Of a stretch of 64,000 nucleotides of DNA, positions 7,809 through 51,359 are shown in pieces. The translations under genes were made by a program, and so were the position numbers. The notes below the pieces were generated by a model that was given only the letters and a program-made list of their open reading frames with translations, ran no database searches and was not told the origin of the DNA. Within the stretch, counting starts at the first letter, position 1. Every line of letters begins with the position of its first letter. Source of the DNA: a virus (lineage: Duplodnaviria; Caudoviricetes); IMG/VR virus record IMGVR_UViG_3300028920_000023; one strand, written 5' to 3'.

Positions 7809-8311
7809 CCAAAATCCTAGACGTATGCTGCGGACCACGGTCCATGTGGTACGACCCAACAAACCCGAACGTAATATACGGAGACTGCAGAAACGAAACA
7901 ATAATAGTCAAAGACCAATCACACGGCAAAATAGGCGGAACAAGAAGTATACAAATCGCACCAGACATACTATTAGACTTCAGAACATTACCATTCTACA
8001 ACAACACATTCGACCTCGTAGCCTTCGACCCGCCCCACGCCAGAACAGGACCAAAAAGCTGGTTAGGAGCAAAATACGGAAAACTATCACCAAACTGGAA
8101 AGAAGATATCAAACAAGGATTCAAAGAATGCCTCAGAGTATTAAAAACAACAGGAACACTAATATTCAAATGGAACGAAACACACGTAAGACTGAGTCAA
8201 ATTATGAAACTCACCCCACATAAACCACTATTCGGGCAGGTAGCAGGAAGACACGGAAAAACACACTGGATGGTATTTATGAAGACTTCCTCTCATACTC
8301 CTCATACATAA
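7805..8311 (+). CDS. SAM-dependent methyltransferase (phage type, DPPH motif)
   Basis: ILDVCCGPRSMW motif I; DLVAFDPPH; FKWNE. Confidence 0.85.
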   Translation: MTKILDVCCGPRSMWYDPTNPNVIYGDCRNETIIVKDQSHGKIGGTRSIQIAPDILLDFRTLPFYNNTFDLVAFDPPHARTGPKSWLGAKYGKLSPNWKEDIKQGFKECLRVLKTTGTLIFKWNETHVRLSQIMKLTPHKPLFGQVAGRHGKTHWMVFMKTSSHTPHT

Positions 8312-8489
8312 CATACATCGTCTTCAACTCTTCCCGAGTCTCCATAATAATCTTCGCATTACTCTCATCATGTTTACCATATTCACCACCTACAGCATCA
8401 AGAAAACCTTCCCTATCACGAATAGCACAAAGCACAACATAAGACCTAAACTCATCCATATTCCTAAAATGCTTCGGAGCACGTGCCAT
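8277..8489 (-). CDS. Hypothetical protein
   Basis: Short ORF starting MARAPKHF, fills a gap. Confidence 0.5.
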   Translation of the reverse strand: MARAPKHFRNMDEFRSYVVLCAIRDREGFLDAVGGEYGKHDESNAKIIMETREELKTMYVMYEEYERKSS

Positions 8490-8540
8490 ACCAAATAATA
8501 CCACGAAACAATACAAATTAAAATTGTACATATAACAGTC

Positions 8541-9155
8541 ATGATTGGCTATATAATGTGCCTAGAATGCTCCGTAAAATACAGAGGAAGAGCCACCGGC
8601 GACCTCCCGCACGGAACATACCTAGTAATAATCAAACCAGACGGATCCATAAGCATACACAGCGCCAACTCACCACAACCAGTCAACCACCAATCCGGAG
8701 GATCTAAGTTTCAATACGGAGACAACCAAATTATAGCAACCAGAAAAAACGAAACAATTACAGTAAACATAACAAAAACCATCTGGGCACAACAAATCGA
8801 AAACTGGTCAACAAACAAACCAAAAATGAAGAAAACAGAAAACCACCTACGCGACAAAATAATAAGAAACATAGAAGAACTGCTAGAAGAACCAATCAAA
8901 AGCATAGAAAAAGAATTCAAAACACCATACGGCCCAGTAGACCTAGCAGCACTCGCAAGATCCGGAACACTGCACATTATAGAAATAAAACGCGGAAAAG
9001 CCAACATCAACGCCGCAACACAACTAAAGAAATACATAGAAGCACTAAATCAAGACAACATACAAGGATGGCTCATGAGTCCCGAGATATCGGAGGGAGC
9101 CCTTCGGCATCTTCACGATCACGACCTATCGTGGGTACCCGTGGAGCACGACTAG
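8541..9155 (+). CDS. nucS: Endonuclease NucS/EndoMS (mismatch-specific)
   Basis: CSVKYRGR, KPDGSISIH, PVN, ENHL, EFKTPYGPVDL, IEIKRG, QLKKY (intact PD-(D/E)XK and QxxxY residues). Confidence 0.88.
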   Translation: MIGYIMCLECSVKYRGRATGDLPHGTYLVIIKPDGSISIHSANSPQPVNHQSGGSKFQYGDNQIIATRKNETITVNITKTIWAQQIENWSTNKPKMKKTENHLRDKIIRNIEELLEEPIKSIEKEFKTPYGPVDLAALARSGTLHIIEIKRGKANINAATQLKKYIEALNQDNIQGWLMSPEISEGALRHLHDHDLSWVPVEHD

Positions 9156-9597
9156 AATCGCACACCGTGCAGGTATAAAACGCAGTCGCTATAGAATGCT
9201 TCGTATAAGCTTCACACAAATAACAATACTTGGAAACCAAAACACGATCCTCAGCAACAACTTCCTTTTTCTTCCGTTTCTTATTCTCCCTCACTATTAT
9301 AGCCCTAGATCTGCTCCCCCTAACGAAATCCTGCAACCAAGAATACCACAAACTAACCAACTCACTACGCCGCCTAGCGGAAGAATCACCAAACTCCATA
9401 CCATAAACCCTAGTAGGAATAACCTTAGAAACCAAAGCCCTACCATTGTCAAAAAATGGATACCATCTATCCACAAAATACGCAGGATACACCAAATCCT
9501 TATCAACAACAACTTTCAACTTTGTAGCTTTATCAGGTAAACGTTTAGGCTTATCGAATTTCTTATTAGTAAGAGACCTTCTAAGAGTAAAATTCAC
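9073..9597 (-). CDS. Hypothetical protein with C-terminal CxxC..CxxC
   Basis: 174-aa ORF; overlaps the nucS 3' end. Confidence 0.55.
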   Translation of the reverse strand: MNFTLRRSLTNKKFDKPKRLPDKATKLKVVVDKDLVYPAYFVDRWYPFFDNGRALVSKVIPTRVYGMEFGDSSARRRSELVSLWYSWLQDFVRGSRSRAIIVRENKKRKKKEVVAEDRVLVSKYCYLCEAYTKHSIATAFYTCTVCDSSRAPRVPTIGRDREDAEGLPPISRDS

Positions 9598-9926
9598 CGC
9601 CTCATTCTCGACTTAGCAAAAGCATCCCTAATCTGCTTATGAGGAGACTTATATTTCTTATCTTTATCAATCTTAAGATTCAAAGCAACCTGGAGAACCG
9701 GCTCAATCCTATCCTTAATCTCCTCCAAAGTCTTAGCATCACCAACAGAACCCTGCAACCAATATAACTTAGTATCGCCCTTAGAGGGCATTATAACTAA
9801 ATCCTCAATAGGTAAAACAGACTTATTAACCTTCAACCAATCCGCCATCTGCATAGATAAAGCCCTGGACATATACTCCGGAACACCAGCCATATCTATC
9901 GTCAATATCAAAGTCCTTCTATCCAT
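9594..9926 (-). CDS. Hypothetical protein
   Basis: 110-aa ORF with GAGGA RBS. Confidence 0.75.
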   Translation of the reverse strand: MDRRTLILTIDMAGVPEYMSRALSMQMADWLKVNKSVLPIEDLVIMPSKGDTKLYWLQGSVGDAKTLEEIKDRIEPVLQVALNLKIDKDKKYKSPHKQIRDAFAKSRMRR

Positions 9927-10040
9927 AACATCCTCATATCATCTTAATTAAAAAACCAACCACAAATATCGCCAAGAATATATACATCGCATATCGCAGA
10001 ATCTTATCAAAATGAGTTTTGTGCACATTATCATATTGCA

Positions 10041-10535
10041 TTATGGCCCTCTCCTAGGTCTGATTTTCTCAAGTTCCTCATTCAACCTATTAACAAACTT
10101 AGCTAACTTCTCATTATCAGAATGCAACTCAGACATCAATTGCGCAATATTATCTATGCGCCTATCCAACTGCCCTCCCCACCAGACCTTGACACCAGGT
10201 TGGTCCTGAATATTAACATCATGCCACTTATATAATTCTGTAACTTTTGAAGAGACATTATTAATAATAAGCTTTTGTTCTTCTTGAGCTCTAGCAATAC
10301 TTTCAAGACGACGATATACTTCCGCTTGGGGAAGCTCAATAATCTGGCTTTGAGACGGAGACTTCTCATCAGCAGACCCTTTCCTACGCTCCTGAAATAC
10401 CTTCAGAAAACCAAAAACCTCCTTAAGAATAAGTATAGCCAGAACACCGCCAGCGCCAAGAGCTGTTAACTTACTATCCCAATCAGCCTCGGCGACAACA
10501 AGATTATTGTAAGCCCAAAATATATTTTCGTACAT
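10041..10535 (-). CDS. Membrane-anchored coiled-coil protein (possibly holin-like)
   Basis: One hydrophobic helix LTALGAGGVLAILIL followed by coiled coil. Confidence 0.65.
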   Translation of the reverse strand: MYENIFWAYNNLVVAEADWDSKLTALGAGGVLAILILKEVFGFLKVFQERRKGSADEKSPSQSQIIELPQAEVYRRLESIARAQEEQKLIINNVSSKVTELYKWHDVNIQDQPGVKVWWGGQLDRRIDNIAQLMSELHSDNEKLAKFVNRLNEELEKIRPRRGP

Positions 10536-10607
10536 GAGGTTGCTCCAGTCAATCCCGGTTTGCACATCGGGCTTCCATAATATGTTTGGAGTAGAGTAAA
10601 TAAAAAC

Positions 10608-11498: not shown

Positions 11499-12209
11499 CT
11501 ACCCCCCACACAACTTATTCAAATCCAGAAGATAATCACCTTCATCAACAGAAAATACCGATTGACAATCCTCACAATAATAAGAAGGACGCTCATAAGG
11601 ACCACCAGAACAGAAATTCAAATTCTCATGAGGACACTCCAACTGAATCCGGGACAATTCCCTCTCAAGATCCATTATCTCAGACTTCAAATCATCAATC
11701 TCAAGATGAATATTACGAACCCTAACAGAAACACGCTCCAACCTAGGCTCCATAACATTCTCAACACAACTCATCAAAGTACCTAAAGAACCATCATTCT
11801 TAATAACAGCCACAGAAGGAGCAGACGAAACATCATCCATAGTCAGAGGGTCAGTACTCCCAGGCTCCGTACGACCATGAACATAAATAACCAACTGAAA
11901 CCAAGACTTAACAGCATCAAACTCATTCTTAGGACGAACCCCAGAAACAACCCAACCACGCCTCAAACACTCCCTAACAAAATACCCAGGATCATCCTTC
12001 TGTTTTCCCTTACCGAACTCAAACAACCGCTCCCGAAAATCCTCTTTTCTCTCACAGACCTCCTCGGGAGTAATACCCAGACTATCGGCAAACTCCTTGA
12101 TAATGATCGCAGAACAATCGGTAGCCGTGGTACCGAGCATCTCAGCAACCTTATTAGCTACCGTAGTCTTGCCGCCCTTGCTAGGACCTACAACTAGGAC
12201 CCTGAACAT
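11499..12209 (-). CDS. P-loop kinase (deoxynucleoside monophosphate kinase-like) with C-terminal Zn ribbon
   Basis: VLVVGPSKGGKTT Walker A; KEDFRERL; VSGVR..NEF; IKNDGSL; CPHE..CEDC. Confidence 0.75.
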   Translation of the reverse strand: MFRVLVVGPSKGGKTTVANKVAEMLGTTATDCSAIIIKEFADSLGITPEEVCERKEDFRERLFEFGKGKQKDDPGYFVRECLRRGWVVSGVRPKNEFDAVKSWFQLVIYVHGRTEPGSTDPLTMDDVSSAPSVAVIKNDGSLGTLMSCVENVMEPRLERVSVRVRNIHLEIDDLKSEIMDLERELSRIQLECPHENLNFCSGGPYERPSYYCEDCQSVFSVDEGDYLLDLNKLCGG

Positions 12210-12210
12210 C

Positions 12211-12588
12211 TTATGGCTCCTTTCTGACTTCAGGTAATGAAGGAAGATACCCCAAAGCACTATTAATATTACGTTCTAAACCCATTCTACGTTTCTCTTG
12301 ATTATCAATAAATTTCTTCATCTCAGCTCTATTAGAAGCAAAGAAAAAACCTTTACTATTGCTAATAATAGGAACACCACAATCATTAAACAAGATTTTA
12401 ACAGCCTTCCTAATCAAATTATCCTGAGCAGAATCAATAAGACCAAGAGCATTAGAAATCTGCTTAGCAGTCTTAGAATTCTCACTACCATACGCGAACC
12501 TATGCACAAATATCGTAATAGATTCTAATAACTCTATAGGTACCTCAGAAGTATTCTTCTTGGGAACAGCAGAATGAATATTGGTCAT
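12211..12588 (-). CDS. Winged-HTH-like protein
   Basis: TAKQISNAL..IRKAVKIL..GVPIISNSKGFFFA pattern; ATG at 12588. Confidence 0.6.
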   Translation of the reverse strand: MTNIHSAVPKKNTSEVPIELLESITIFVHRFAYGSENSKTAKQISNALGLIDSAQDNLIRKAVKILFNDCGVPIISNSKGFFFASNRAEMKKFIDNQEKRRMGLERNINSALGYLPSLPEVRKEP

Positions 12589-12775: not shown

Positions 12776-14296
12776 TTATATGATTATCTGCCATTTCTTT
12801 TTACCTAGATCAAAGACCTTGTGAAAACCTTGTGAAGATCTAAGTTCTACTTCTGTCTTGCCCAAATCCTTTTCCGCCTTACTCTTCCTTAAGGCAGATT
12901 TATGAAACCTTGTAGAATTCTTGACCCAATAATAATCGGGTTTAACATCTGAGACGTAGGTCATCCCCATTATCTTATAAACATTCCCAACCATAAGACG
13001 ATTATCAGAGAAAGTAATCAATTTACCAGATATTATTCCCTTCTTCTTGATCCATTTCATGATATACGACCAAATACCATGGACTCTAAAGTCATAATTA
13101 CAGGCCATTCTAGATATTTCCCAATCTCCGGACTTCTGTCTGGTAGGCCTCTTTATGGATAAACAAGCAATTAATTCAAGATCGTAAAAAACACCAACAT
13201 GATAAACCGAATTAACATGCCCTTGATAATGAAATTTTTCGTAAAATGGTCTAACATCTCTGTTGGAACAGATTCTTAATTCACAATCCTTCGGCCTAAT
13301 ACTCCTAGTTTCAATAGATCCAATTTTATTACTAATTATCTTATTAAATAGTTCTCGTGATGAATTGAATTCATCACTATAAATTAATATATCTGGTCTA
13401 ACATTCAATGCATAAGGACAAGAAACATCATAAATTTCATACAAAATGCCCTCGCTATAAACCAGTTCATGAAAACAATGATTGTTTAATCTTGTAATCC
13501 ACCCCAATAATTCAGGTATTCTACTATCAATTTGGTTTCCATAATCAGAAGAACGAATTGTTGCGATTTCTAAAGCAAGAGATACCCTGTCATGCTTGAA
13601 CTTAATATACGGCAACAACTTAGGAACCCACCTCAATATAGCCCTGGACATCATTCGGATCTGTTTTGTATCTCTCCTGTTGCCTACGCCCCTACATGAA
13701 CCAACCTTCAGACTAAGTATCTTGGCTAAGTATTCTACACAAAAATGATCAGTAAGTGAAATCTTAATATATGGCTTCTTATTCTTACTATTAAATCTCC
13801 CAGTGGTTACAGTTCCATCACCATCAATAAGTCCAGCTAACCACGATAAAGAGAAAACATGATCCGAAACTCGCTCGCCAATATCAGCCTCCTTGCCACG
13901 TTTATTGATGTCTGACAATTTCAGTAATAAATCATCCCATTCTTTCTTTTGATCCTCAGTATATGGCGTAAAATCGTCAGAATCTTTTATATTTATAGCT
14001 TGAAGACAAATTTTAGCCTGTCTTCTCTTAACATACAAATAAGGTAATATACCTTGAATCAAAAACCTGAGTTTATTTCCATAAAAGGTAATCTCATAAT
14101 AAGACTTACCGGAATATTTGGCATCCAATAAACTAGCGATATATGGGACAATTATTTTGTCAGTGGTTTTAATTCTGGCTCTGACTCTTCTAATCGTTAC
14201 ATCATATTTTCCTCTCTTAGCTTTTTGATAATTCATCTGAAAAGAACCTTCAGCATCTACAACGCCAGCAATATAAGCCCAATCATCATTTGTCAT
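12776..14296 (-). CDS. Free-standing homing-endonuclease-like chimera: two LAGLIDADG motifs plus Hef-like/Mom-like C-terminal domain
   Basis: YIAGVVDAEGSF and WLAGLIDGDGTV; C-terminal FHYQG, WEISRMA, LITFSDNR, GNVY, PDYYW, RFHK, KVFDLGKKKW. Confidence 0.8.
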   Translation of the reverse strand: MTNDDWAYIAGVVDAEGSFQMNYQKAKRGKYDVTIRRVRARIKTTDKIIVPYIASLLDAKYSGKSYYEITFYGNKLRFLIQGILPYLYVKRRQAKICLQAINIKDSDDFTPYTEDQKKEWDDLLLKLSDINKRGKEADIGERVSDHVFSLSWLAGLIDGDGTVTTGRFNSKNKKPYIKISLTDHFCVEYLAKILSLKVGSCRGVGNRRDTKQIRMMSRAILRWVPKLLPYIKFKHDRVSLALEIATIRSSDYGNQIDSRIPELLGWITRLNNHCFHELVYSEGILYEIYDVSCPYALNVRPDILIYSDEFNSSRELFNKIISNKIGSIETRSIRPKDCELRICSNRDVRPFYEKFHYQGHVNSVYHVGVFYDLELIACLSIKRPTRQKSGDWEISRMACNYDFRVHGIWSYIMKWIKKKGIISGKLITFSDNRLMVGNVYKIMGMTYVSDVKPDYYWVKNSTRFHKSALRKSKAEKDLGKTEVELRSSQGFHKVFDLGKKKWQIII

Positions 14297-14410
14297 TATG
14301 TGCCTCCGTAATAAATATTATATTTTATCGTTAAAATTATTAATGTCAAATTTCCATGATATGAAAGCACGTACATAAAAACAAGAACACACCCAAAAGG
14401 AGCTACAAAC

Positions 14411-15637
14411 GTGTTAGCAGACTTCTTCTTCAAACAAAGAAAACTCTCAATACTACTAGACGGCTCAGCAGGAAGCTCCGGAAAAGGCAGAACAGGCTCC
14501 TGGATAACAGAAAACTCACAAAATTGGCAATTCTGCACAAACACCTTCGCACCGCAAGCCGGACACTGGGTCAAACTCCAAAACGGAAAACAATACTTCT
14601 ACCAAACCCTAAACAGCTGCGCATACCAAGAACACTATGAAAAAATGTACCTCGCCCCCGGCGCGATGATAGAACTACCGGCATTATGGCGAGAACTGGA
14701 AGAAAACAACATAAAACCACACAAACTAGGCATCCACCCACTAACACAAATCCTACAAGACATAGACGCCAAATTCGAACGAGGACAAGTAGACCTCGAC
14801 GGAAATGAACTAGAAAACATCCACGACGGAACGATGCGCGCAGGAACCACAGCACACGGCGTAGGAGCATGCCGAGCAAGACGAATACTCAGAAGAAAAG
14901 AAGCAAAATTCGCCAGAGATATACCAGAACTAAACGAATTTATCTGCGACACCAGCAAAGAAATAATGGACAGACTAGAATCAGGACAAGCCGGATTCAT
15001 GGAAATCGCACAAGGATACCAACTATCCTACATGCTATCCCAATTCTACCCATACTGCACAAGCCGAAACTGCACAGTCGCAGCAGCCATGGACGACTCC
15101 ATGCTCCCAGTCCACCTAGCCGGGAACGTAATGATAAACTTCAGAAGTTACCCAATACGAATCAACAGCAAAAAATACATATCACTAAAAGACGGACACC
15201 ACCTCACCTGGCAAGAAATCCAAAACGGAACAGAAGGAACAGACTACAAAATCATAAACAGCCCAAGCGGACACGGGTACCCAGACCAAGAAGAAACAAC
15301 CTGGGAACACGTAACAGAAACATCCGGATCAAAAGAACCAATCCTAGAAATGACCAGCGTCACCAAACTACCCAGACGCGTATTCACATTCAGCAAACAA
15401 AACGTAGAAGACGCCATACGAGCAAACAGAGCAAACGGAGAAGTCTACTGCAGCCTAAACTTCATAGACTACATAGACTCAAAATTAGCAGGAAAAAACG
15501 GCATCGACAAAACAACATCAAAAACACAAGAATGGATAGACAACAACTTCCCACAAAAACACAGACTAGCACTTCTCGGAACAGGACCACACACAGAAGA
15601 TACCATAATCAGATTGAGAGACACCATCCTACCATAA
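14411..15637 (+). CDS. purZ: PurZ-type adenylosuccinate-synthetase homolog (N6-succino-2-amino-dAMP synthase)
   Basis: DGSAGSSGKG (Ser where PurA has the catalytic Asp of GDEGKG), PQAGH, YPYCTSRNCT, RSYPIR, TSVTKLPRRVFTFS, SLNFIDY, GTGP; GTG start with AAAGGAG RBS. Confidence 0.85.
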   Translation: MLADFFFKQRKLSILLDGSAGSSGKGRTGSWITENSQNWQFCTNTFAPQAGHWVKLQNGKQYFYQTLNSCAYQEHYEKMYLAPGAMIELPALWRELEENNIKPHKLGIHPLTQILQDIDAKFERGQVDLDGNELENIHDGTMRAGTTAHGVGACRARRILRRKEAKFARDIPELNEFICDTSKEIMDRLESGQAGFMEIAQGYQLSYMLSQFYPYCTSRNCTVAAAMDDSMLPVHLAGNVMINFRSYPIRINSKKYISLKDGHHLTWQEIQNGTEGTDYKIINSPSGHGYPDQEETTWEHVTETSGSKEPILEMTSVTKLPRRVFTFSKQNVEDAIRANRANGEVYCSLNFIDYIDSKLAGKNGIDKTTSKTQEWIDNNFPQKHRLALLGTGPHTEDTIIRLRDTILP

Positions 15638-17137: not shown

Positions 17138-17491
17138 TCAGGAACCCCTAACAAGCTCAGGCGGAACCCTACTAACCCAATGCTCAGGAACCCAAATAAG
17201 CTTATCACCAAACTTCACACGATAATGAACATGATCCCTAGCAGCAACAACACCAAAACTCAAAAAATAAGGATGACGATCATTATTAACATAAACCCTA
17301 GTACCCTCCTCCATCGGAGGAATATCAGGCTCAATACTCAACTGACGATCAACCCCAGGAGAAACAACCTCAACAACCTCATCACCATCACCCATAAAAA
17401 ACCTATCACATCCAGAACAATACTCAGCACAAGGCAAAGCCTCATCCCACTTAACACGAATAGTAGAAGAACCACAAACAGAACAAATCAT
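17138..17491 (-). CDS. Zn ribbon plus SH3/KOW-like small protein
   Basis: CSVC..CSGC; GTRVYV..FGVV..YRVKFG..WVP. Confidence 0.7.
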   Translation of the reverse strand: MICSVCGSSTIRVKWDEALPCAEYCSGCDRFFMGDGDEVVEVVSPGVDRQLSIEPDIPPMEEGTRVYVNNDRHPYFLSFGVVAARDHVHYRVKFGDKLIWVPEHWVSRVPPELVRGS

Positions 17492-18027
17492 TTACATAAG
17501 AACCTAATCTGCTGAATCAAATCACACAACCTAATACGCAACAAATCATCAACATCACCAATAGCATCATTCAACAACTCAGACTCCTTAGCATATATCA
17601 TAAAAAACTTCCTACGATCCTCAGAAGCAGACTTAAAATCAGAAATCACCTCAGAAAGATTATCAATACGATCACACAACTTAATAACCTTAGCCTCGTT
17701 ACTAACCTTAGCAAGACGAGACCTATCCATAGCCTTACGCTTAGCCCTAGGCTCCTTACTATCCTTAGAAACATTCGTCAGCTCCTGGACAAGAGCAGTC
17801 ACACCACCACCAAACCTAGCAGTAATAATCTCAGGAGTCACCTTATCCGGATGATCCTCCAAAGAATCATGCAAAAGAGCAGCGACAACCATGTACTTCG
17901 TACACATCGGATGGGACATCACCGCCCCAGCCACACGAGTCAGGTGCGTCAAGTACGGCTTACCGTTATCCTTGCGCTTCTGCCCATTGTGCACCTGCTT
18001 GGCAAATTCCAAAGCCTCATAGATCAT
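17488..18027 (-). CDS. HD-domain hydrolase, SpoT/Mesh1 ((p)ppGpp hydrolase) type
   Basis: H.GQKRK..PYLTH, AALLHDSLED, KLCDRIDNL. Confidence 0.88.
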   Translation of the reverse strand: MIYEALEFAKQVHNGQKRKDNGKPYLTHLTRVAGAVMSHPMCTKYMVVAALLHDSLEDHPDKVTPEIITARFGGGVTALVQELTNVSKDSKEPRAKRKAMDRSRLAKVSNEAKVIKLCDRIDNLSEVISDFKSASEDRRKFFMIYAKESELLNDAIGDVDDLLRIRLCDLIQQIRFLCK

Positions 18028-18518
18028 GACAATACCTTCTTATCTATCCTCTCCGAACGGGCCGGCGTCGGTCCTATCTGACCACAGTATCTGCCCGTAT
18101 CAGCATACGAAAGTTCAGTACTCTCGCTCAGAGGAATAAACAACATCTGCGCAATCTTAATATCAGGATTCAAAACAACCGGCGTATTACTAGCATTATA
18201 CAACTCTAAAGTGCCCTGGCCCCGAAATCCAGGATCAAAAAACACACTCAAACAATGACTAACCCCCATACGACCAATCGTACTCTTCAAACGAAGTTCA
18301 CCAGCAAGATCCAAAGGAAAAACAAAAAACTCATTCGTAGTAGCAATAATAAACTCATGAGGCATAAGCTTAATAGGCAACAAAGCATCCTCATCACCCT
18401 TAACCAAAACATTCCTATTAAGCGTCACATCATAACTAGCAGGATTAACCATATTAGAATTAAAAGGCGTAATAATACTAGGACCGTGCTTTAGAATCCA
18501 CTGCGCCGGATGAAGCAT
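18024..18518 (-). CDS. dcd: dCTP deaminase
   Basis: NPASYDVTL, KSTIGRMG, DPGFRGQGTLEL, IAQMLF, Y.GQIGPT. Confidence 0.9.
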   Translation of the reverse strand: MLHPAQWILKHGPSIITPFNSNMVNPASYDVTLNRNVLVKGDEDALLPIKLMPHEFIIATTNEFFVFPLDLAGELRLKSTIGRMGVSHCLSVFFDPGFRGQGTLELYNASNTPVVLNPDIKIAQMLFIPLSESTELSYADTGRYCGQIGPTPARSERIDKKVLS

Positions 18519-19188
18519 TCTCTCTAATCTCCCTAGACCTCTTGCCCAAAACAGAAACAACCCTCTGAGCAGCATCAAAACCAACATCATACCTAGCAAC
18601 CTTACCCTGAAAATTAATAACAGTATCAGGACTAACATTACCACACAATTTAATAGGAACACCAGAACGCTCACGAATCATACGAATAGCATCCGCATGA
18701 TCCTTATCCTTAAACCTCTGCAACCGCAAATCAACATTCGTACGCAAAAAATCAGGCGGAAACTTCTTAAAATGCTTAAAAAACTTAATAATATCCTCAA
18801 ACTTCCTACCATGCAAATTCAAACAATACCTCAACTCCTTACCAGCCAAATCCTTACGAAAAAAACGATACAACTCAGATAACTCATTCTCACATTCTTT
18901 ATCAGTACGACCACTACTCAACAAAATCTCAAAACCATCCGCATTCAAAGCACCAGAAGGCAAAACACCAACCTTCTCACCAGCAAAACACCTACCCTCA
19001 GGAAAATCAACAGTACAAATAACCCTAAACTTATTCAAATACCCCTGGCGCAACATGATAGCAGAAGTAACCAACTCAGGAGGAACAACAATCGCGGGAA
19101 TGCGATTTTTAATAGCAAAAGAAGAAAGCCTAGAAACATCCGAACCAAGACCAACATTCACCTCAAGACGACTAAGCAAATTCAACAT
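18478..19188 (-). CDS. DeoC (deoxyribose-phosphate aldolase)-like TIM barrel, catalytically degenerate
   Basis: VICTVDFPEG, ADGFEIL, DFLRTNV (canonical DFxKTSTG), PIKLCG. Confidence 0.6.
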   Translation of the reverse strand: MLNLLSRLEVNVGLGSDVSRLSSFAIKNRIPAIVVPPELVTSAIMLRQGYLNKFRVICTVDFPEGRCFAGEKVGVLPSGALNADGFEILLSSGRTDKECENELSELYRFFRKDLAGKELRYCLNLHGRKFEDIIKFFKHFKKFPPDFLRTNVDLRLQRFKDKDHADAIRMIRERSGVPIKLCGNVSPDTVINFQGKVARYDVGFDAAQRVVSVLGKRSREIRENASSGAVDSKARS

Positions 19189-19967: not shown

Positions 19968-20540
19968 CTACCTCCTCAAAAACCTATGCCAACGCAACAT
20001 CTCCTCATAACCATCCGGACCCCACACATCATCATCACACCTACCATCATCCCAAAACTGCAACAAACCAAACAAATCAACCAAACTCTCAACACAATAC
20101 TTAGGCCAAACAGCACTCATACCCAACTGCTCCAACAACCACATCGACGGCATACCCTCACACACAATAAAAACAGGCTTATACCTACCAAACGTAATCT
20201 CCTCCAACGTACCATACGTCTTAGCACCACACAAATTAACAATCATCCAATCACACTGTGCAGCCCAAGTCAAACCAGCCAACCTCAAATCACGAACCCC
20301 AGACCACTCACGCTCCAAACGAACAAACTCACCATCCTCAAAACAAGCAACACGCCTACGATCCTCACGCTGCCTAACACCATCCACATCAGGAACAAAA
20401 TCAGGCTTCTTAAGAGGATCCCAAACACCAACATCCAAAGAACCCAAAAACCCAGAACACTCATCACGCCAAGAAGACGCATCACCCTCGAACTCAATAG
20501 GCCCAGACAAATAACACACAGAACCACCAAGAAAACCCAT
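19968..20540 (-). CDS. Nucleoside 2-deoxyribosyltransferase / dNMP N-glycosidase-like protein
   Basis: YLSGPIE..WR, DP, DLRL..CD.MIV, GTLEE. Confidence 0.75.
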   Translation of the reverse strand: MGFLGGSVCYLSGPIEFEGDASSWRDECSGFLGSLDVGVWDPLKKPDFVPDVDGVRQREDRRRVACFEDGEFVRLEREWSGVRDLRLAGLTWAAQCDWMIVNLCGAKTYGTLEEITFGRYKPVFIVCEGMPSMWLLEQLGMSAVWPKYCVESLVDLFGLLQFWDDGRCDDDVWGPDGYEEMLRWHRFLRR

Positions 20541-43974: not shown

Positions 43975-45039
43975 ATGAACAACACACAACTACTAGAGAA
44001 GCTCAATAAAACCGGCAAACTAACCCAAAAACAAATGGAAAAACTAGCCAGACACATGACAAGGGCATCCAGGGAAAGGCAGCTAGAAGCCATAAGGCAA
44101 TGTGGATACGCTCTCTGCTTTATCGAAAACCCAACAGAAGAAATAGAACTAGAAGCCGTAAAACAAAACGGCTACGCTATCGACTATATCAAGAACCCAA
44201 CAGAAGAAGTACAACTAGAAGCCGTAAAACAAAACGGCGGAGCTGTCAAGTTTATTGACAACCCATCCGAGACTGTCCAGTTAGAGGCAGTAAAGCAAAA
44301 CGGAGAAGCCATCAGACGTATCGAAAGCCCATCCAAGGAAGTGCAGCTAGAAGCCGTAAAACAAAACGGATTCGCTATCCAGTATATCGATAACCCATCC
44401 AGAGAAGTCCAGCTAGAAGCCGTAAAACAAAATGGCTACGCTCTCCAACATATCACTATCCCATCTAGGGAAGTACAGCTAGCGGCAATAAAACAAGCCG
44501 GAGGTGCTATCCGATACCTTGAGAACCCAACAGAAGAAATACAACTAGAAGCAGTAAAGAAAGCTGGCACAACCATCAGACATATCAAAAACCCAACAGA
44601 AGAAATACAACTAGAAGCAGTAAAACAAAACGGCGGAGCTGTCAGGTTCATCAAGAACCCAACACAAGAAATACAACTAACAGCAGTAAAACAAACTGGA
44701 ATGGCCATCGAGCATATCGAAAACCCAACAGAAGAAATAAAACTAGCAGCCGTAAAACAAGACGGAAATGTTATCCGGTATATCGAAAACCCAACCAAAG
44801 AAGTACAGCTAGAAGCCGTAAAACAAAACTGCGCAGCAATCCGGCATATTAGGAGCCCCACAGGAGATCTGGAAGTATTATCCCTAATGCTCAGGCTTAA
44901 TGGCGATTACGACATGGCACACAGAACAGCCAAAACCCTATACGAAGACATGAGCAAAGACGACCGAGAAAAACTCAAGGACAGCCTAACCAGATCCAGA
45001 AGCGCATTGGCTGGCGGTGGCCGCACACTGGACATCTGA
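43975..45039 (+). CDS. DUF4116-like 22-aa repeat protein, paralog 1
   Basis: Repeated QLEAVKQNGYAI.YI.NPTEE. Confidence 0.88.
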   Translation: MNNTQLLEKLNKTGKLTQKQMEKLARHMTRASRERQLEAIRQCGYALCFIENPTEEIELEAVKQNGYAIDYIKNPTEEVQLEAVKQNGGAVKFIDNPSETVQLEAVKQNGEAIRRIESPSKEVQLEAVKQNGFAIQYIDNPSREVQLEAVKQNGYALQHITIPSREVQLAAIKQAGGAIRYLENPTEEIQLEAVKKAGTTIRHIKNPTEEIQLEAVKQNGGAVRFIKNPTQEIQLTAVKQTGMAIEHIENPTEEIKLAAVKQDGNVIRYIENPTKEVQLEAVKQNCAAIRHIRSPTGDLEVLSLMLRLNGDYDMAHRTAKTLYEDMSKDDREKLKDSLTRSRSALAGGGRTLDI

Positions 45040-45094
45040 CGCTAGACAGACCCGCTACGGTAGCTGGAACTTTCCAAACCACAAAGGAGAAAAC

Positions 45095-46456
45095 ATGAAC
45101 AACACACAACTACTAGAGAAGCTCAATAAAACCGGCAAACTAACCCAAAAACAAATGGAAAAACTAGCCAGATATGTAGTAAAGGAAGATAAGTACGGGT
45201 TAGTAAAGGTATGGAGTGAGGAATTCCAGCTGGCTGTAATTAACAGATCTGGTTATGTTATCCGATATATCGAGAACCCTTCTATGGAAGTACAATTGGC
45301 AGCCGTAAAACAAAACGGCTACGCTATCGAGCACATCGAGAACCCAACAGAAGAAATCCAACTAGAAGCTGTAAAACAAAACAGATCTGGTTATGTTATC
45401 CGATATATCGAGAACCCTTCTATGGAAGTACAATTGGCAGCCGTAAAACAAAACGGCTACGCTATCGAGCACATCAGGAACCCAACAGAAGAAATGAAAC
45501 TAGCAGCAGTAAAACAAAACGGACGAGCCATCAGGTACATCAAAAACCCAACAGAAGAAATGAAGCTAGCAGCCGTAAAACAAAACGGCTACGCTATCAA
45601 GTATATCAAGAACCCTTCTATGGAAGTACAATTGGCAGCAGTACGAGAAAACGGACTCACTATCAAGTACATCAAGAACCCAACAGAAGAAATCCAGATG
45701 GCAGCAGTAAAACAAGACGAAGAAGCCATCAAGCATATCAAGAACCCAACAGAAGAAGTACAGCTAGAAGCCGTAAAACAAGACGGAGAAGCCATCGAGT
45801 ATATCAAGAACCCAACAGAAGAAATGAAACTAACAGCAGTAAAACAAAACGGACGAGCCATCAGGTACATCAAAAACCCAACAGAAGAAGTGAAGCTAGA
45901 AGCCGTAAAACAAAACAGCTACGCTATCGACTATATCAAGAACCCAACAGAAGAAATGAAGCTAGCAGCCGTAAAACAAAACGGCTATGCTATCAAGCAT
46001 ATCGAGAACCCATCCATAGAAGTACAACTGGCAGCCGTAAAACAAGACGGAGAAGCCATCGGGTACATCAAAAACCCAACAGAAGAAATCCAGATGGCAG
46101 CCGTAAAGCAAGACGGCTACGCTATCGAGTACATCGAAAAACCAGCCAGAGAAGCACAACTAGCGGCCGTAAAACAAGCTGGCGAAATTATCAAGTATAT
46201 CAAGAACCCAACCAAAGAAGTACAACTAGAAGCCGTAAAACAAGACTGCATAGCAATCCGACACATAAAAGAACCATCCGAAGAAATAACAATCTTATCC
46301 CTAATGCTCAGGCTCAATGGCGATTACGACATAGTGCACAGAACAGCCAAAACCCTATACGAAGACATGAGTAAAAACGACCGAGAAAAACTCAGGGACA
46401 GTCTGATCAGATCCAGAAGTGTATTGGCTGGTGGTGGTCGCGCACTGGACATCTGA
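45095..46456 (+). CDS. DUF4116-like 22-aa repeat protein, paralog 2
   Basis: RBS and N-terminus identical to paralog 1, C-terminus similar, more repeats. Confidence 0.88.
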   Translation: MNNTQLLEKLNKTGKLTQKQMEKLARYVVKEDKYGLVKVWSEEFQLAVINRSGYVIRYIENPSMEVQLAAVKQNGYAIEHIENPTEEIQLEAVKQNRSGYVIRYIENPSMEVQLAAVKQNGYAIEHIRNPTEEMKLAAVKQNGRAIRYIKNPTEEMKLAAVKQNGYAIKYIKNPSMEVQLAAVRENGLTIKYIKNPTEEIQMAAVKQDEEAIKHIKNPTEEVQLEAVKQDGEAIEYIKNPTEEMKLTAVKQNGRAIRYIKNPTEEVKLEAVKQNSYAIDYIKNPTEEMKLAAVKQNGYAIKHIENPSIEVQLAAVKQDGEAIGYIKNPTEEIQMAAVKQDGYAIEYIEKPAREAQLAAVKQAGEIIKYIKNPTKEVQLEAVKQDCIAIRHIKEPSEEITILSLMLRLNGDYDIVHRTAKTLYEDMSKNDREKLRDSLIRSRSVLAGGGRALDI

Positions 46457-50114: not shown

Positions 50115-51359
50115 ATGCGTAAATATATGCTCGTATTTCTGTTAACACCATCTTTGCTCCTAGCCTCATCAAGGTTATGGGACGCCAAAGAAGAAGCCAA
50201 CATCGTAAGGAAAGATTACACAGGGAAAGAAGTCACGATAGCTGTCATCGGCACGCGAATAACCGATGACGGCACCAACTTTCAAAACAGAATAATACAC
50301 ACAGAACTGATAGCAGACACAGAAAGATCAGACCACGAAACCCATGTGGCATCAATCATAGCCAGCAACGGTGTCCATTACGGAATAGCCCCAGACTCCA
50401 AAATCATATCAGTCGTAATCTATGGAGATCCAAGCACAGAGAACATCCTGAAAGCCCTAAATTGGATCGCTGACAACAAAGAAAACTTTAGTATCGACAT
50501 AATAAACTTCAGTTCCGCATTCCGGGAAACCCCCTATGAGACCACCAAAAAACCCGGAATGTTATCCTTAACACTAGAAAGATTAAAAAAACTAGGCATC
50601 TTAATTATCTGTTCAAGCGGTAACAAACCAATCGACAGTATGGCTTACCCAGCATACGACCCGTCAGTGGTATCTGTGGCTGGGTACGACAAAGGAAACA
50701 CCATCTCCTCGTTCAGTTATAGTTCGATTTTCGCACCCGGCAACATCCTAGCAGCAAGCCACGAAGCCCCCTGGTCAGCCATCCGAAGAGACGGCTCATC
50801 TATGGCCGCTCCCGTAGTCACAGGAGCTTGCGCAAGATACATCGAAGCATATCGCAAGAACTACGGAACAACACCAAGCCCAGACAAAGTACAAAACATA
50901 ATCTTCGCGACAGCAAGAAGCGAATTCCTAAATGATGGCAAACTGCTCAGAAGGCTGCTCGATGCAGACAAGATGCTAGCCGAATTCCCAACATCGAACT
51001 ACGGAGAACTAACAGTACACACATCAAGATCCCGCACGAAAATCAGAAGAGCATCTATAATGCTCAAAGCAAGATACGAAGGCGAATTGACACTCCCTTT
51101 CACACTGGAATCCGGCCACTTCAGATACCGAGTAACTTCCTGGGAACAGAAAAAACCTGTTAAACTCAGAAAAACCAAAAGAACCATCAGACTCAAAATA
51201 AGGTGGCCCGAAGCATTCGTGTGGAAAAATCTGATCGGACAATCCGTCAAAATAATCCTCGATAAAGAAGTGAGGACATCACGCAAAGATGACCGCCACA
51301 ATACGAGCAGAAAGGAGGACGACCGGTGCAAACAACCGAAGAAATACAGGAGACAATAG
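50115..51359 (+). CDS. S8 subtilisin-family protease with signal peptide (catalytic Asp replaced by Gly)
   Basis: AVIGTRI (canonical AVIDTGI), HETHVAS, SSGN, GSSMAAPVVTG. Confidence 0.8.
   Translation: MRKYMLVFLLTPSLLLASSRLWDAKEEANIVRKDYTGKEVTIAVIGTRITDDGTNFQNRIIHTELIADTERSDHETHVASIIASNGVHYGIAPDSKIISVVIYGDPSTENILKALNWIADNKENFSIDIINFSSAFRETPYETTKKPGMLSLTLERLKKLGILIICSSGNKPIDSMAYPAYDPSVVSVAGYDKGNTISSFSYSSIFAPGNILAASHEAPWSAIRRDGSSMAAPVVTGACARYIEAYRKNYGTTPSPDKVQNIIFATARSEFLNDGKLLRRLLDADKMLAEFPTSNYGELTVHTSRSRTKIRRASIMLKARYEGELTLPFTLESGHFRYRVTSWEQKKPVKLRKTKRTIRLKIRWPEAFVWKNLIGQSVKIILDKEVRTSRKDDRHNTSRKEDDRCKQPKKYRRQ

Follow-up and report, generated by a model that had tools for sequence, protein, structure and literature searches.

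An open reading frame (ORF) at positions 14411-15637 on the + strand of a 64,000-nucleotide stretch of virus DNA (IMG/VR record IMGVR_UViG_3300028920_000023; Duplodnaviria, Caudoviricetes), here called the window, encodes a PurZ-like protein which, as judged from its sequence, belongs to a third, uncharacterised Ser-type (PurZ-like) lineage of the adenylosuccinate synthetase superfamily carried by large phages. The ORF is intact and its product, a putative enzyme with the adenylosuccinate-synthetase fold, is probably active. A pathway to 2-aminoadenine (Z), with chemistry directed at deoxyguanosine monophosphate (dGMP), is the best single reading and the one that we favour, with some reserve; full replacement of A by Z in the DNA is plausible at a lower level of confidence. 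If true, an abundant third PurZ-like lineage with helpers of its own, in phages of 150 to >400 kb, would extend Z-DNA or Z-nucleotide chemistry to jumbo phages and megaphages. PurZ serves in some phages to put Z in place of adenine in their DNA. To our knowledge, all phages shown so far to have Z-DNA are small, around 40-80 kb, and carry PurZ or PurZ0 with DatZ/MazZ or DutZ/DmtZ.

A Ser-type synthetase with PurZ signature residues

The ORF encodes 408 residues from a GTG start codon, and in the alignment its N-terminus lines up with those of homologues. An initial annotation of this DNA had quoted the motifs GSSGKG, YPYCTSR, RSYPIR, TSVTKLPRRVFTFS and NFIDY, all of which are found in the ORF. 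The features are as follows.

14397..14402, + strand: Shine-Dalgarno-like AAGGAG, read directly, 8 nucleotides 5' of the GTG start
14411..15637, + strand: PurZ-like ORF of the Ser-type adenylosuccinate-synthetase superfamily, long-form clade (Pfam, PHROG, PDB, NCBIfam, tree, AlphaFold2 and Foldseek)
14471..14488, + strand: P-loop GSSGKG, residues 21-26, with S22 (codon 14474-14476) in place of the PurA catalytic Asp13
15047..15067, + strand: substrate-pocket motif YPYCTSR, residues 213-219, equivalent to S-2L Y203-C204-T205
15143..15160, + strand: RSYPIR, residues 245-250, in which I249 aligns with PurA T271
15161..15163, + strand: I251, one residue past R250, aligned with PurA V273 beside the sugar 2' position
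15167..15265, + strand: insertion of about 33 residues (253-285) relative to phiVC8 and S-2L PurZ in the alignment, typical of the long-form clade
15353..15394, + strand: TSVTKLPRRVFTFS, residues 315-328, in which T315 corresponds to phiVC8 T262, L320 to PurA R303 and R322 to PurA R305
15458..15472, + strand: NFIDY, phosphate-donor base site, residues 350-354 (D353 codon 15467-15469)

The protein matches Pfam PF00709 with 52 bits (cut-off 27) and PHROG 1211, '2-aminooxy adenylosuccinate synthetase', with an E-value of 3.8e-35. A sequence search of the PDB places phiVC8 PurZ (6FM1/6FKO/6TNH, E around 1e-23) and Pyrococcus horikoshii PurA (5e-22) at the top, followed by S-2L PurZ (5e-18) and the PurZ0 structure 7VF6 (1e-12), bacterial and eukaryotic PurA being found at E >1e-4. 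Since these matches are joined by that between an AlphaFold2 model and 6FM1, the motif matches are not due to chance. The model, built from 79 relatives, has a predicted local distance difference test score (pLDDT) of 95.3 and a predicted template modelling (TM) score of 0.93; pLDDT falls to 78 in the insertion. Its best Foldseek matches are PurZ 6FM1 (4e-24), archaeal PurA 5K7X (2.4e-23), PurZ 7ODX (2.6e-23) and PurZ0 7VF6 (9.6e-22). Because PurZ and archaeal PurA are mixed in this ranking, the fold cannot tell PurZ from the short archaeal PurA.

Residues were mapped in a MAFFT alignment of 157 sequences. A smaller alignment had put E. coli PurA three columns off, and the larger one, together with the 'TMLD' rows of PurZ0, backs the register that the initial annotation had assumed. 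The residue aligned with E. coli PurA Asp13 is S22 (S14 in phiVC8, S23 in S-2L), so that Ser does stand at the PurA catalytic Asp as had been claimed. N350, F351, D353 and Y354 share columns with PurA T330, K331, D333 and V334, with phiVC8 N294, F295, N297 and Y298, and with S-2L N305, F306, Q308 and Y309. The catalytic and substrate residues are retained as K25, H52, T147, R161, Q201, T217 and R322 (E. coli K16, H41, T129, R143, Q224, T239 and R305, in the same order), and alongside them are changes of PurZ type, namely D13 to S22, T271 to I249, R303 to L320 (as in S-2L), K331 to F351 and V334 to Y354. The phiVC8 markers Y244, W252, T262 and P233 correspond to Y290, W298, T315 and P248, and altogether about 8 of the 12 PurZ markers from a metaGPA study are matched. 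These states are widely kept: among the 120 closest cluster representatives, which are 49-62% identical to the window protein, Ser occupies the Asp13 position in 119, and the substrate-site residues I249, L320 and T315, changes linked to dGMP use, are invariant or almost so.

The residue map bears directly on whether the protein could be an ordinary auxiliary PurA, making adenylosuccinate from inosine monophosphate and boosting the supply of AMP/dATP. Source annotations do name relatives adenylosuccinate synthase, and the NCBIfam model of archaeal PurA scores as high as that of PurZ. Equally, the Flavobacterium phage MaF61, whose protein is a relative of the present one, encodes an adenylosuccinate lyase 10 kb from its synthetase gene, although a Z route needs a lyase too. 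Yet the window protein lacks the PurA hallmarks, having Ser22 for Asp13 and Phe351 for Lys331 of (T/N)KxD, and its T271I, R303L and K331F changes are all of PurZ type. Asp13 is present in 99% of true PurA (PMC12884076), as against the near-universal Ser here. We regard an auxiliary PurA as most improbable.

The lineage and its residue at position 353

The phylogeny comprises 75 rows and was built in IQ-TREE under LG+C20+F+G4, with a single outgroup, E. coli PurA, whose branch length is 2.8, and with Asp-type archaeal PurA outside the sampling. The window protein and the MaF61 protein fall together in a long-form clade of 25 rows (support 100/99), characterised by GSSGKG and lengths of about 400-470 residues. 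In the maximum-likelihood tree this clade lies inside a crown sharing NFx(N/Q)Y (94/81; also 88/91 and 81/95), apart both from the clade of every characterised PurZ (99/96) and from PurZ0 (100/100). At the base lie PurZ0 and a number of N(F/H)xDY lineages with GSEGKG, all carrying Asp. A tree constrained to unite the long-form clade with PurZ0 is worse by 45.6 units of log-likelihood (lnL) and is marginally rejected by the approximately unbiased (AU) test (p 0.042). The initial annotation's view of the gene as a Ser-type PurZ-like member from a large phage lineage is upheld, relatives being found on contigs of up to 441 kb.

The lineage is abundant. A word-indexed search retrieved 405 clusters at E<=1e-5, many of them 50-62% identical and on contigs of 60-370 kb, and an exhaustive search 1405 representatives at E<=1e-3; in the best 150 of these 1405 the P-loop, where readable, is of Ser or Gly type and never Asp. 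The only cultured carrier found is MaF61 (167.8 kb). A megablast of window positions 10-22 kb against phage records gave no match. About a dozen representatives bear inteins of around 370-400 residues within the PurZ-like gene, at two sites.

Site 1, before the Cys of YPxC|TSR: P0121, P0123, P0125, P0131, P0179, P0221 and P0237
Site 2, before the Cys of GST|CHG: P0122, P0127, P0130 and P0134

Both sites are active-site motifs, which we count, as a sign of selection, in support of a PurZ-like enzyme in a Z pathway. Inteins usually sit in active-site motifs. The window protein has Ala at site 2 and contains no intein.

A further copy, 51-53% identical, lies at 7983-10540 of a 441-kb contig (L017, CAVTYW010000027.1) of a Pirellulales metagenome-assembled genome. 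It is interrupted by a transposase ORF of insertion-sequence type between residues ~296 and 289, in a locus with 55-65% GC and no strand skew; two PurA genes of the same assembled genome are frameshifted. This copy may stem from a decayed prophage and may point to planctomycetes as hosts.

The phosphate-donor site of the window protein is of mixed character. In S-2L PurZ the adenine of dATP is stacked on F306 and P336 and its 6-amino group is bound by N305, Q308 and the backbone of G335, the amide at the phiVC8 N297/S-2L Q308 position being reported to exclude guanine (PMC8342488); phiVC8 F295 and Y298 have also been named as adenine-stabilising (bioRxiv 10.1101/2025.10.22.683976). N350, F351 and Y354 of the window protein are of this PurZ (ATP) type. 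D353, in contrast, departs from N297 and is of PurA/PurZ0 type, this being the column where PurA has its guanine-reading D333 and PurZ0 an Asp (TMLD or SFAD), so that the initial annotation had rightly placed an Asp at the guanine-recognising position of PurA. Since the position is the one reported to exclude guanine, a changed or relaxed donor preference is a reasonable hypothesis: D353 would replace an Asn/Gln whose amide is thought to repel the 2-amino group of guanine, and the enzyme may take GTP besides ATP.

If it is indeed a third PurZ-like lineage, it would offer natural Asn/Asp variants at the one position believed to decide between ATP and GTP. PurZ0 is said to use GTP, a result attributed to Tong et al. 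in 2023. A sentence elsewhere has PurZ0 and PurZ preferring 'ATP and GTP, respectively' (PMC12884076), an order that reads reversed; in the PurZ structures of phiVC8 and S-2L the nucleotide present is ATP or dATP.

How D353 arose is best judged from the relatives. Of the 120 closest representatives, 109 have Asn and 11 have Asp in this column, their tree requires no fewer than seven independent changes, and the full N-F-x-(N/Q)-Y motif is present in 91%. N350, Y354 and D356 are the same in all 120 and F351 in 119 of them, while the nearest kin of the window protein have NFVNY, NFANY or NFMNY. As Asn is found throughout the long-form clade, D353 is secondary whatever the deep position of that clade. 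We therefore see D353, on this comparative evidence, as a minority state that has arisen repeatedly at a site with functional meaning, and not as a relic or an evolutionary intermediate.

This departs from the initial annotation, which had proposed an intermediate PurZ/PurZ0-like enzyme. Such a protein would stand between PurZ0/PurA and PurZ, would have kept the guanine-reading Asp and would use GTP. The alignment of D353 with the Asp of PurA and PurZ0, at the very position reported to exclude guanine, is in keeping with this idea, as is the fact that the basal Ser-type lineages are all Asp-bearing. A second apparent hybrid trait is T391-G-P, which resembles PurA and PurZ0 and not the G(F/Y/W)GP of characterised PurZ; we rejected it as such since GTGP is the common state in most Ser-type clades on the tree and so uninformative. 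Against the proposal, Asn predominates in close relatives and in every long-form sub-clade, the nearest kin included, the rest of the donor site is of ATP type, the P-loop is GSSGKG and not the GSEAKG of PurZ0, and the union with PurZ0 is marginally rejected, as given above. We consider an intermediate of this kind very unlikely.

Neighbouring genes and the proposed pathway

By homology with phiVC8 and S-2L PurZ, the substrate that we infer is dGMP. Its O6 would be phosphorylated from a nucleoside triphosphate, aspartate would then displace the phosphate to give N6-succino-2-amino-2'-deoxyadenylate, and a PurB-type lyase and kinases would complete the route to the Z deoxynucleoside triphosphate (dZTP). 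Candidates for helpers in this lineage are among the genes within 10 kb, which are listed here.

11499..12260, - strand: P-loop kinase resembling deoxynucleoside monophosphate kinases (PHROG 139, E 1.7e-10; Pfam match weak)
12776..14296, - strand: free-standing double-LAGLIDADG endonuclease with a Mom-like C-terminal domain (PF25680, 27.5 bits, cut-off 27.1), divergent from the PurZ-like gene
17488..18027, - strand: small SpoT/Mesh1-type HD hydrolase (Pfam HD_4, 67.6 bits; TIGR00691, 76 bits)
18024..18674, - strand: dCTP deaminase (DCD)-family gene (Pfam DCD, 92 bits; TIGR02274, 102.6 bits, cut-off 92.8)
18478..19188, - strand: TIM-barrel gene resembling DeoC, deoxyribose-phosphate aldolase (DERA) (Atlas structure, TM 0.79-0.83 to DeoC clusters)
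19968..20540, - strand: nucleoside 2-deoxyribosyltransferase (NDT)-like gene (Atlas, TM 0.77-0.82 to viral NDT clusters; PF05014, E 0.02)

The most constant neighbour is the DeoC-like gene, a homologue of which is found no more than 10 kb from the PurZ-like gene in five of seven related contigs; the NDT-like gene is near it in four of the seven. DmtZ of PurZ0 phages hydrolyses dAMP and moves deoxyribose phosphate onto the Z base (PMC12884076), and a bioRxiv abstract associates an NDT domain with contigs enriched in the Z deoxynucleoside (dZ). The NDT-like protein is likely to belong to the NDT superfamily. Its T-x-G-T-x-E-E core matches the phage Wayne DmtZ domain weakly (hhalign probability 38%), and as a DmtZ orthologue it is weakly supported (BLAST E 0.05); it is possibly a DmtZ analogue. 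The NDT-like and DeoC-like genes would, on our proposal, stand in for DatZ and MazZ in this lineage. Their products may serve to clear dAMP, a task that DmtZ performs in PurZ0 phages, and to get rid of deoxyribose 5-phosphate. By eye, VICTVDFPEG and PIKLCGN in the DeoC-like protein are akin to DERA motifs, and an Arg (FLRTNV) may stand at the position expected of the DERA Schiff-base Lys.

The remaining neighbours offered two further candidates. The HD protein was rejected as DatZ, showing no similarity to phiVC8 DatZ and being SpoT-type by Pfam and TIGR00691. A role for the DCD-like gene as a DutZ analogue was not supported either: it passes the dCTP deaminase equivalog cut-off, and against Wayne DmtZ-DutZ gives a short dUTPase-fold match only. 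Its true start is probably at Met53, near 18518, and DCD genes are also found near the PurZ-like gene in related contigs L015 and L024. A PADLOC scan of the cluster proteins gave no match. Genes for a NucS/EndoMS mismatch endonuclease occur within 10 kb of the PurZ-like gene at window 8541-9155 (+), L024:4505-5122 and L027:14637-15293, accompanying it in two of the seven related contigs.

One related contig, L026, encodes a YfbR-like HD protein (11604-12314) in the next-but-one gene after a long-form PurZ-like gene, homologous to phiVC8 DatZ (27% identity, E 3e-7). The PurZ-like protein in question, with NFLDY, likewise has Asp where the window protein has D353. Upstream there are genes for NAMPT, NUDIX and radical-SAM proteins.

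Several results weigh against a Z pathway for the window gene. The curated NCBIfam PurZ model NF038379 (amino_Aden_PurZ) gives only 136.8 bits, well short of its cut-off of 300, where phiVC8 PurZ scores 397.2, Wayne PurZ0 366.7 and MaF61 145; the archaeal PurA model NF003295 scores alike (139.9 bits, cut-off 368), and for each of the five NCBIfam PurA models the protein stays under the cut-off. By these scores the lineage is therefore equally distant from the PurZ/PurZ0 profile and from archaeal PurA, despite its PurZ signature residues; a third PurZ-like lineage, if borne out, would show the curated PurZ model to score it far under its cut-off. The description of a PurZ-type gene in the initial annotation thus stands as regards signature residues, catalytic set and fold and falls short on the model score, and we file the protein as PurZ-like and not as a proven PurZ member.

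Other points on the same side concern residues, tree and gene content. The PurZ markers F12, N38 and T42 are changed to A20, Q49 and W53. On the tree, an arrangement in which the long-form clade branches off first among the Ser-type lineages is 11.98 lnL worse, and the AU test does not reject it (p 0.29). A bacterial chromosomal family with GSEGKG/NHxDY (6261 hits at E<=1e-10), including chromosomal genes of Lacibacter, Thalassolituus and Bacteroidales, has Ser in place of Asp13 too, so that this Ser alone is no proof of a Z genome. Finally, none of DatZ/YfbR-like HD, MazZ/MazG, DUF550 or DpoZ/Pol I was found among the ~60 ORFs scanned in the 64-kb window.

In Lacibacter sp. MH-610 (L030:4956-9801, CP116002.1) a GSEGKG/NHCDY Ser-type PurA-like gene lies in an apparent operon, flanked by an RNase H/P-loop protein with a weak PADLOC dCTPase match and by a DCD-like gene and a deoxynucleoside kinase. 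The operon could be a nucleotide-pool or defence module.

A nucleotide-pool enzyme without a Z genome is the alternative that these points bring to the fore. The Ser-type enzyme, with the dCTP deaminase, NDT-like and DeoC-like proteins and the kinase, could reshape or drain (d)GMP/(d)AMP pools, whether for taking over the host, for counter-defence or for partial modification, and ordinary adenine would stay in the virion DNA. The missing DatZ, MazZ and DpoZ, the shortfall against the PurZ model and the resemblance of the bacterial operon (DCD-like, deoxynucleoside kinase and dCTPase-like genes) to pool manipulation or defence all speak for it. On the other hand, the genome of S-2L is fully Z although that phage, too, has no Z-selective polymerase (PMC8342488), L026 does have a DatZ-like gene next to its PurZ-like gene, a contribution of NDT-like enzymes to Z pathways has been reported (PMC12884076 and the bioRxiv abstract), and the PurZ-type substrate-site substitutions are kept in all 120 relatives. 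While the neighbourhood fits a Z pathway with different helpers, it fits a general purine-deoxynucleotide remodelling module equally. Taking everything together, we still prefer dGMP-directed chemistry in a Z pathway, and think a pool enzyme rather unlikely, though it is the alternative to be taken most seriously.

The window also has an unusual composition. Between 4000 and 44000 there is extreme strand asymmetry irrespective of gene direction, third codon positions being 84-96% A+C in + strand genes and 81-92% G+T in - strand genes. The sign of the skew reverses near 33 kb, and beyond 44 kb it is weaker. The pattern amounts to C to T plus A to G on one strand, and no such skew is seen in the related contigs L014, L015 and L017 that carry a PurZ-like gene. 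A bisulfite-type artefact was rejected by reasoning, since two different transitions would be needed and the LAGLIDADG gene is exempt. The local skew is absent from that gene, whose third positions are A.27, C.11, G.19 and T.43, and it is therefore probably a recent mobile arrival. Elsewhere in the window, at 54138-56886 (+) and 50115-51359 (+), are genes for an AAA (MoxR-like) ATPase, for a DUF2201 metallopeptidase/VWA protein that follows it and for a subtilase upstream, and tandem DUF4116 repeat genes lie at 43975-46456.

A single account of these observations can be imagined, in which a third PurZ lineage makes Z megaphages, with dAMP disposal by the NDT-like and DeoC-like proteins, replication by a DnaE-type polymerase, and a toggle between ATP and GTP at N/D353. 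If it held, deamination of Z to G and of C to T on the strand staying single-stranded would help to explain the A+C/G+T asymmetry, and the phage NucS, a G/T mismatch endonuclease, would be the matching repair function. As a whole this account is speculative and, in our view, very unlikely.

Comparison with known systems

With the PurZ (deoxyguanylosuccinate/succinoaminodeoxyadenylate synthase) of Vibrio phage phiVC8 (6FM1, 6FKO and 6TNH) and of cyanophage S-2L (7ODX) the window protein shares its fold (Foldseek 4e-24 and 2.6e-23; TM 0.81-0.82 by target), Ser for Asp13, Ile for T271, the catalytic residues, Leu for R303 as in S-2L, and an N-F-x-x-Y donor site in which the Phe and the Tyr are the adenine-stacking residues. 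Identity to them is 24-28%, however, and the window protein is 40-65 residues longer, with the insertion at 253-285. It has GSSGKG where they have GSTGKG, GTGP where they have G(F/Y/W)GP, A20 for F12, Q49 for N38, W53 for T42 and D353 for N297/Q308, and the NCBI PurZ model gives 137 bits here and about 400 there. The lineage of the window protein occurs in phages of >150 kb, without adjoining datZ-mazZ.

PurZ0 is likewise a Ser-type enzyme with Asp at the D333 position, and in PurZ0 phages an NDT-superfamily gene is found nearby in the form of DmtZ (PMC12884076). It differs in having GSEAKG and T-M-x-D-Q (T/S-(M/F)-x-D-Q overall), with no Phe/Tyr pair, against GSSGKG and NFIDY here, and forms a separate clade (100/100), the sequence match to 7VF6 being at E 1e-12. 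Nor is there a DutZ-type dUTPase fusion in the window, where the dUTPase-fold neighbour passes the dCTP deaminase model. P. horikoshii PH0438 PurA (5K7X, 2D7U; NF003295) is an equally good match (E 5e-22, TM 0.85-0.87 by target, 139.9 bits) and has Asp at the guanine-reading position as well, although archaeal PurA has Asp13 and T-K-x-D where the window protein has Ser, and Phe for Lys.

A further comparison is with the putative adenylosuccinate synthetase of MaF61 (PQ858689, ORF141), of the same long-form clade and 35% identical over 95% of the protein. Its gene lies among structural genes beside the terminase, in a genome with its own adenylosuccinate lyase, no PF05014 (NDT) match and a weak YfbR-like match only. 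The MaF61 protein has the majority NFVNY and F20 as against NFIDY and A20 in the window protein, and the two have GSSGKG and the insertion in common. As MaF61 is cultured, whether dZ occurs in its DNA is directly testable.

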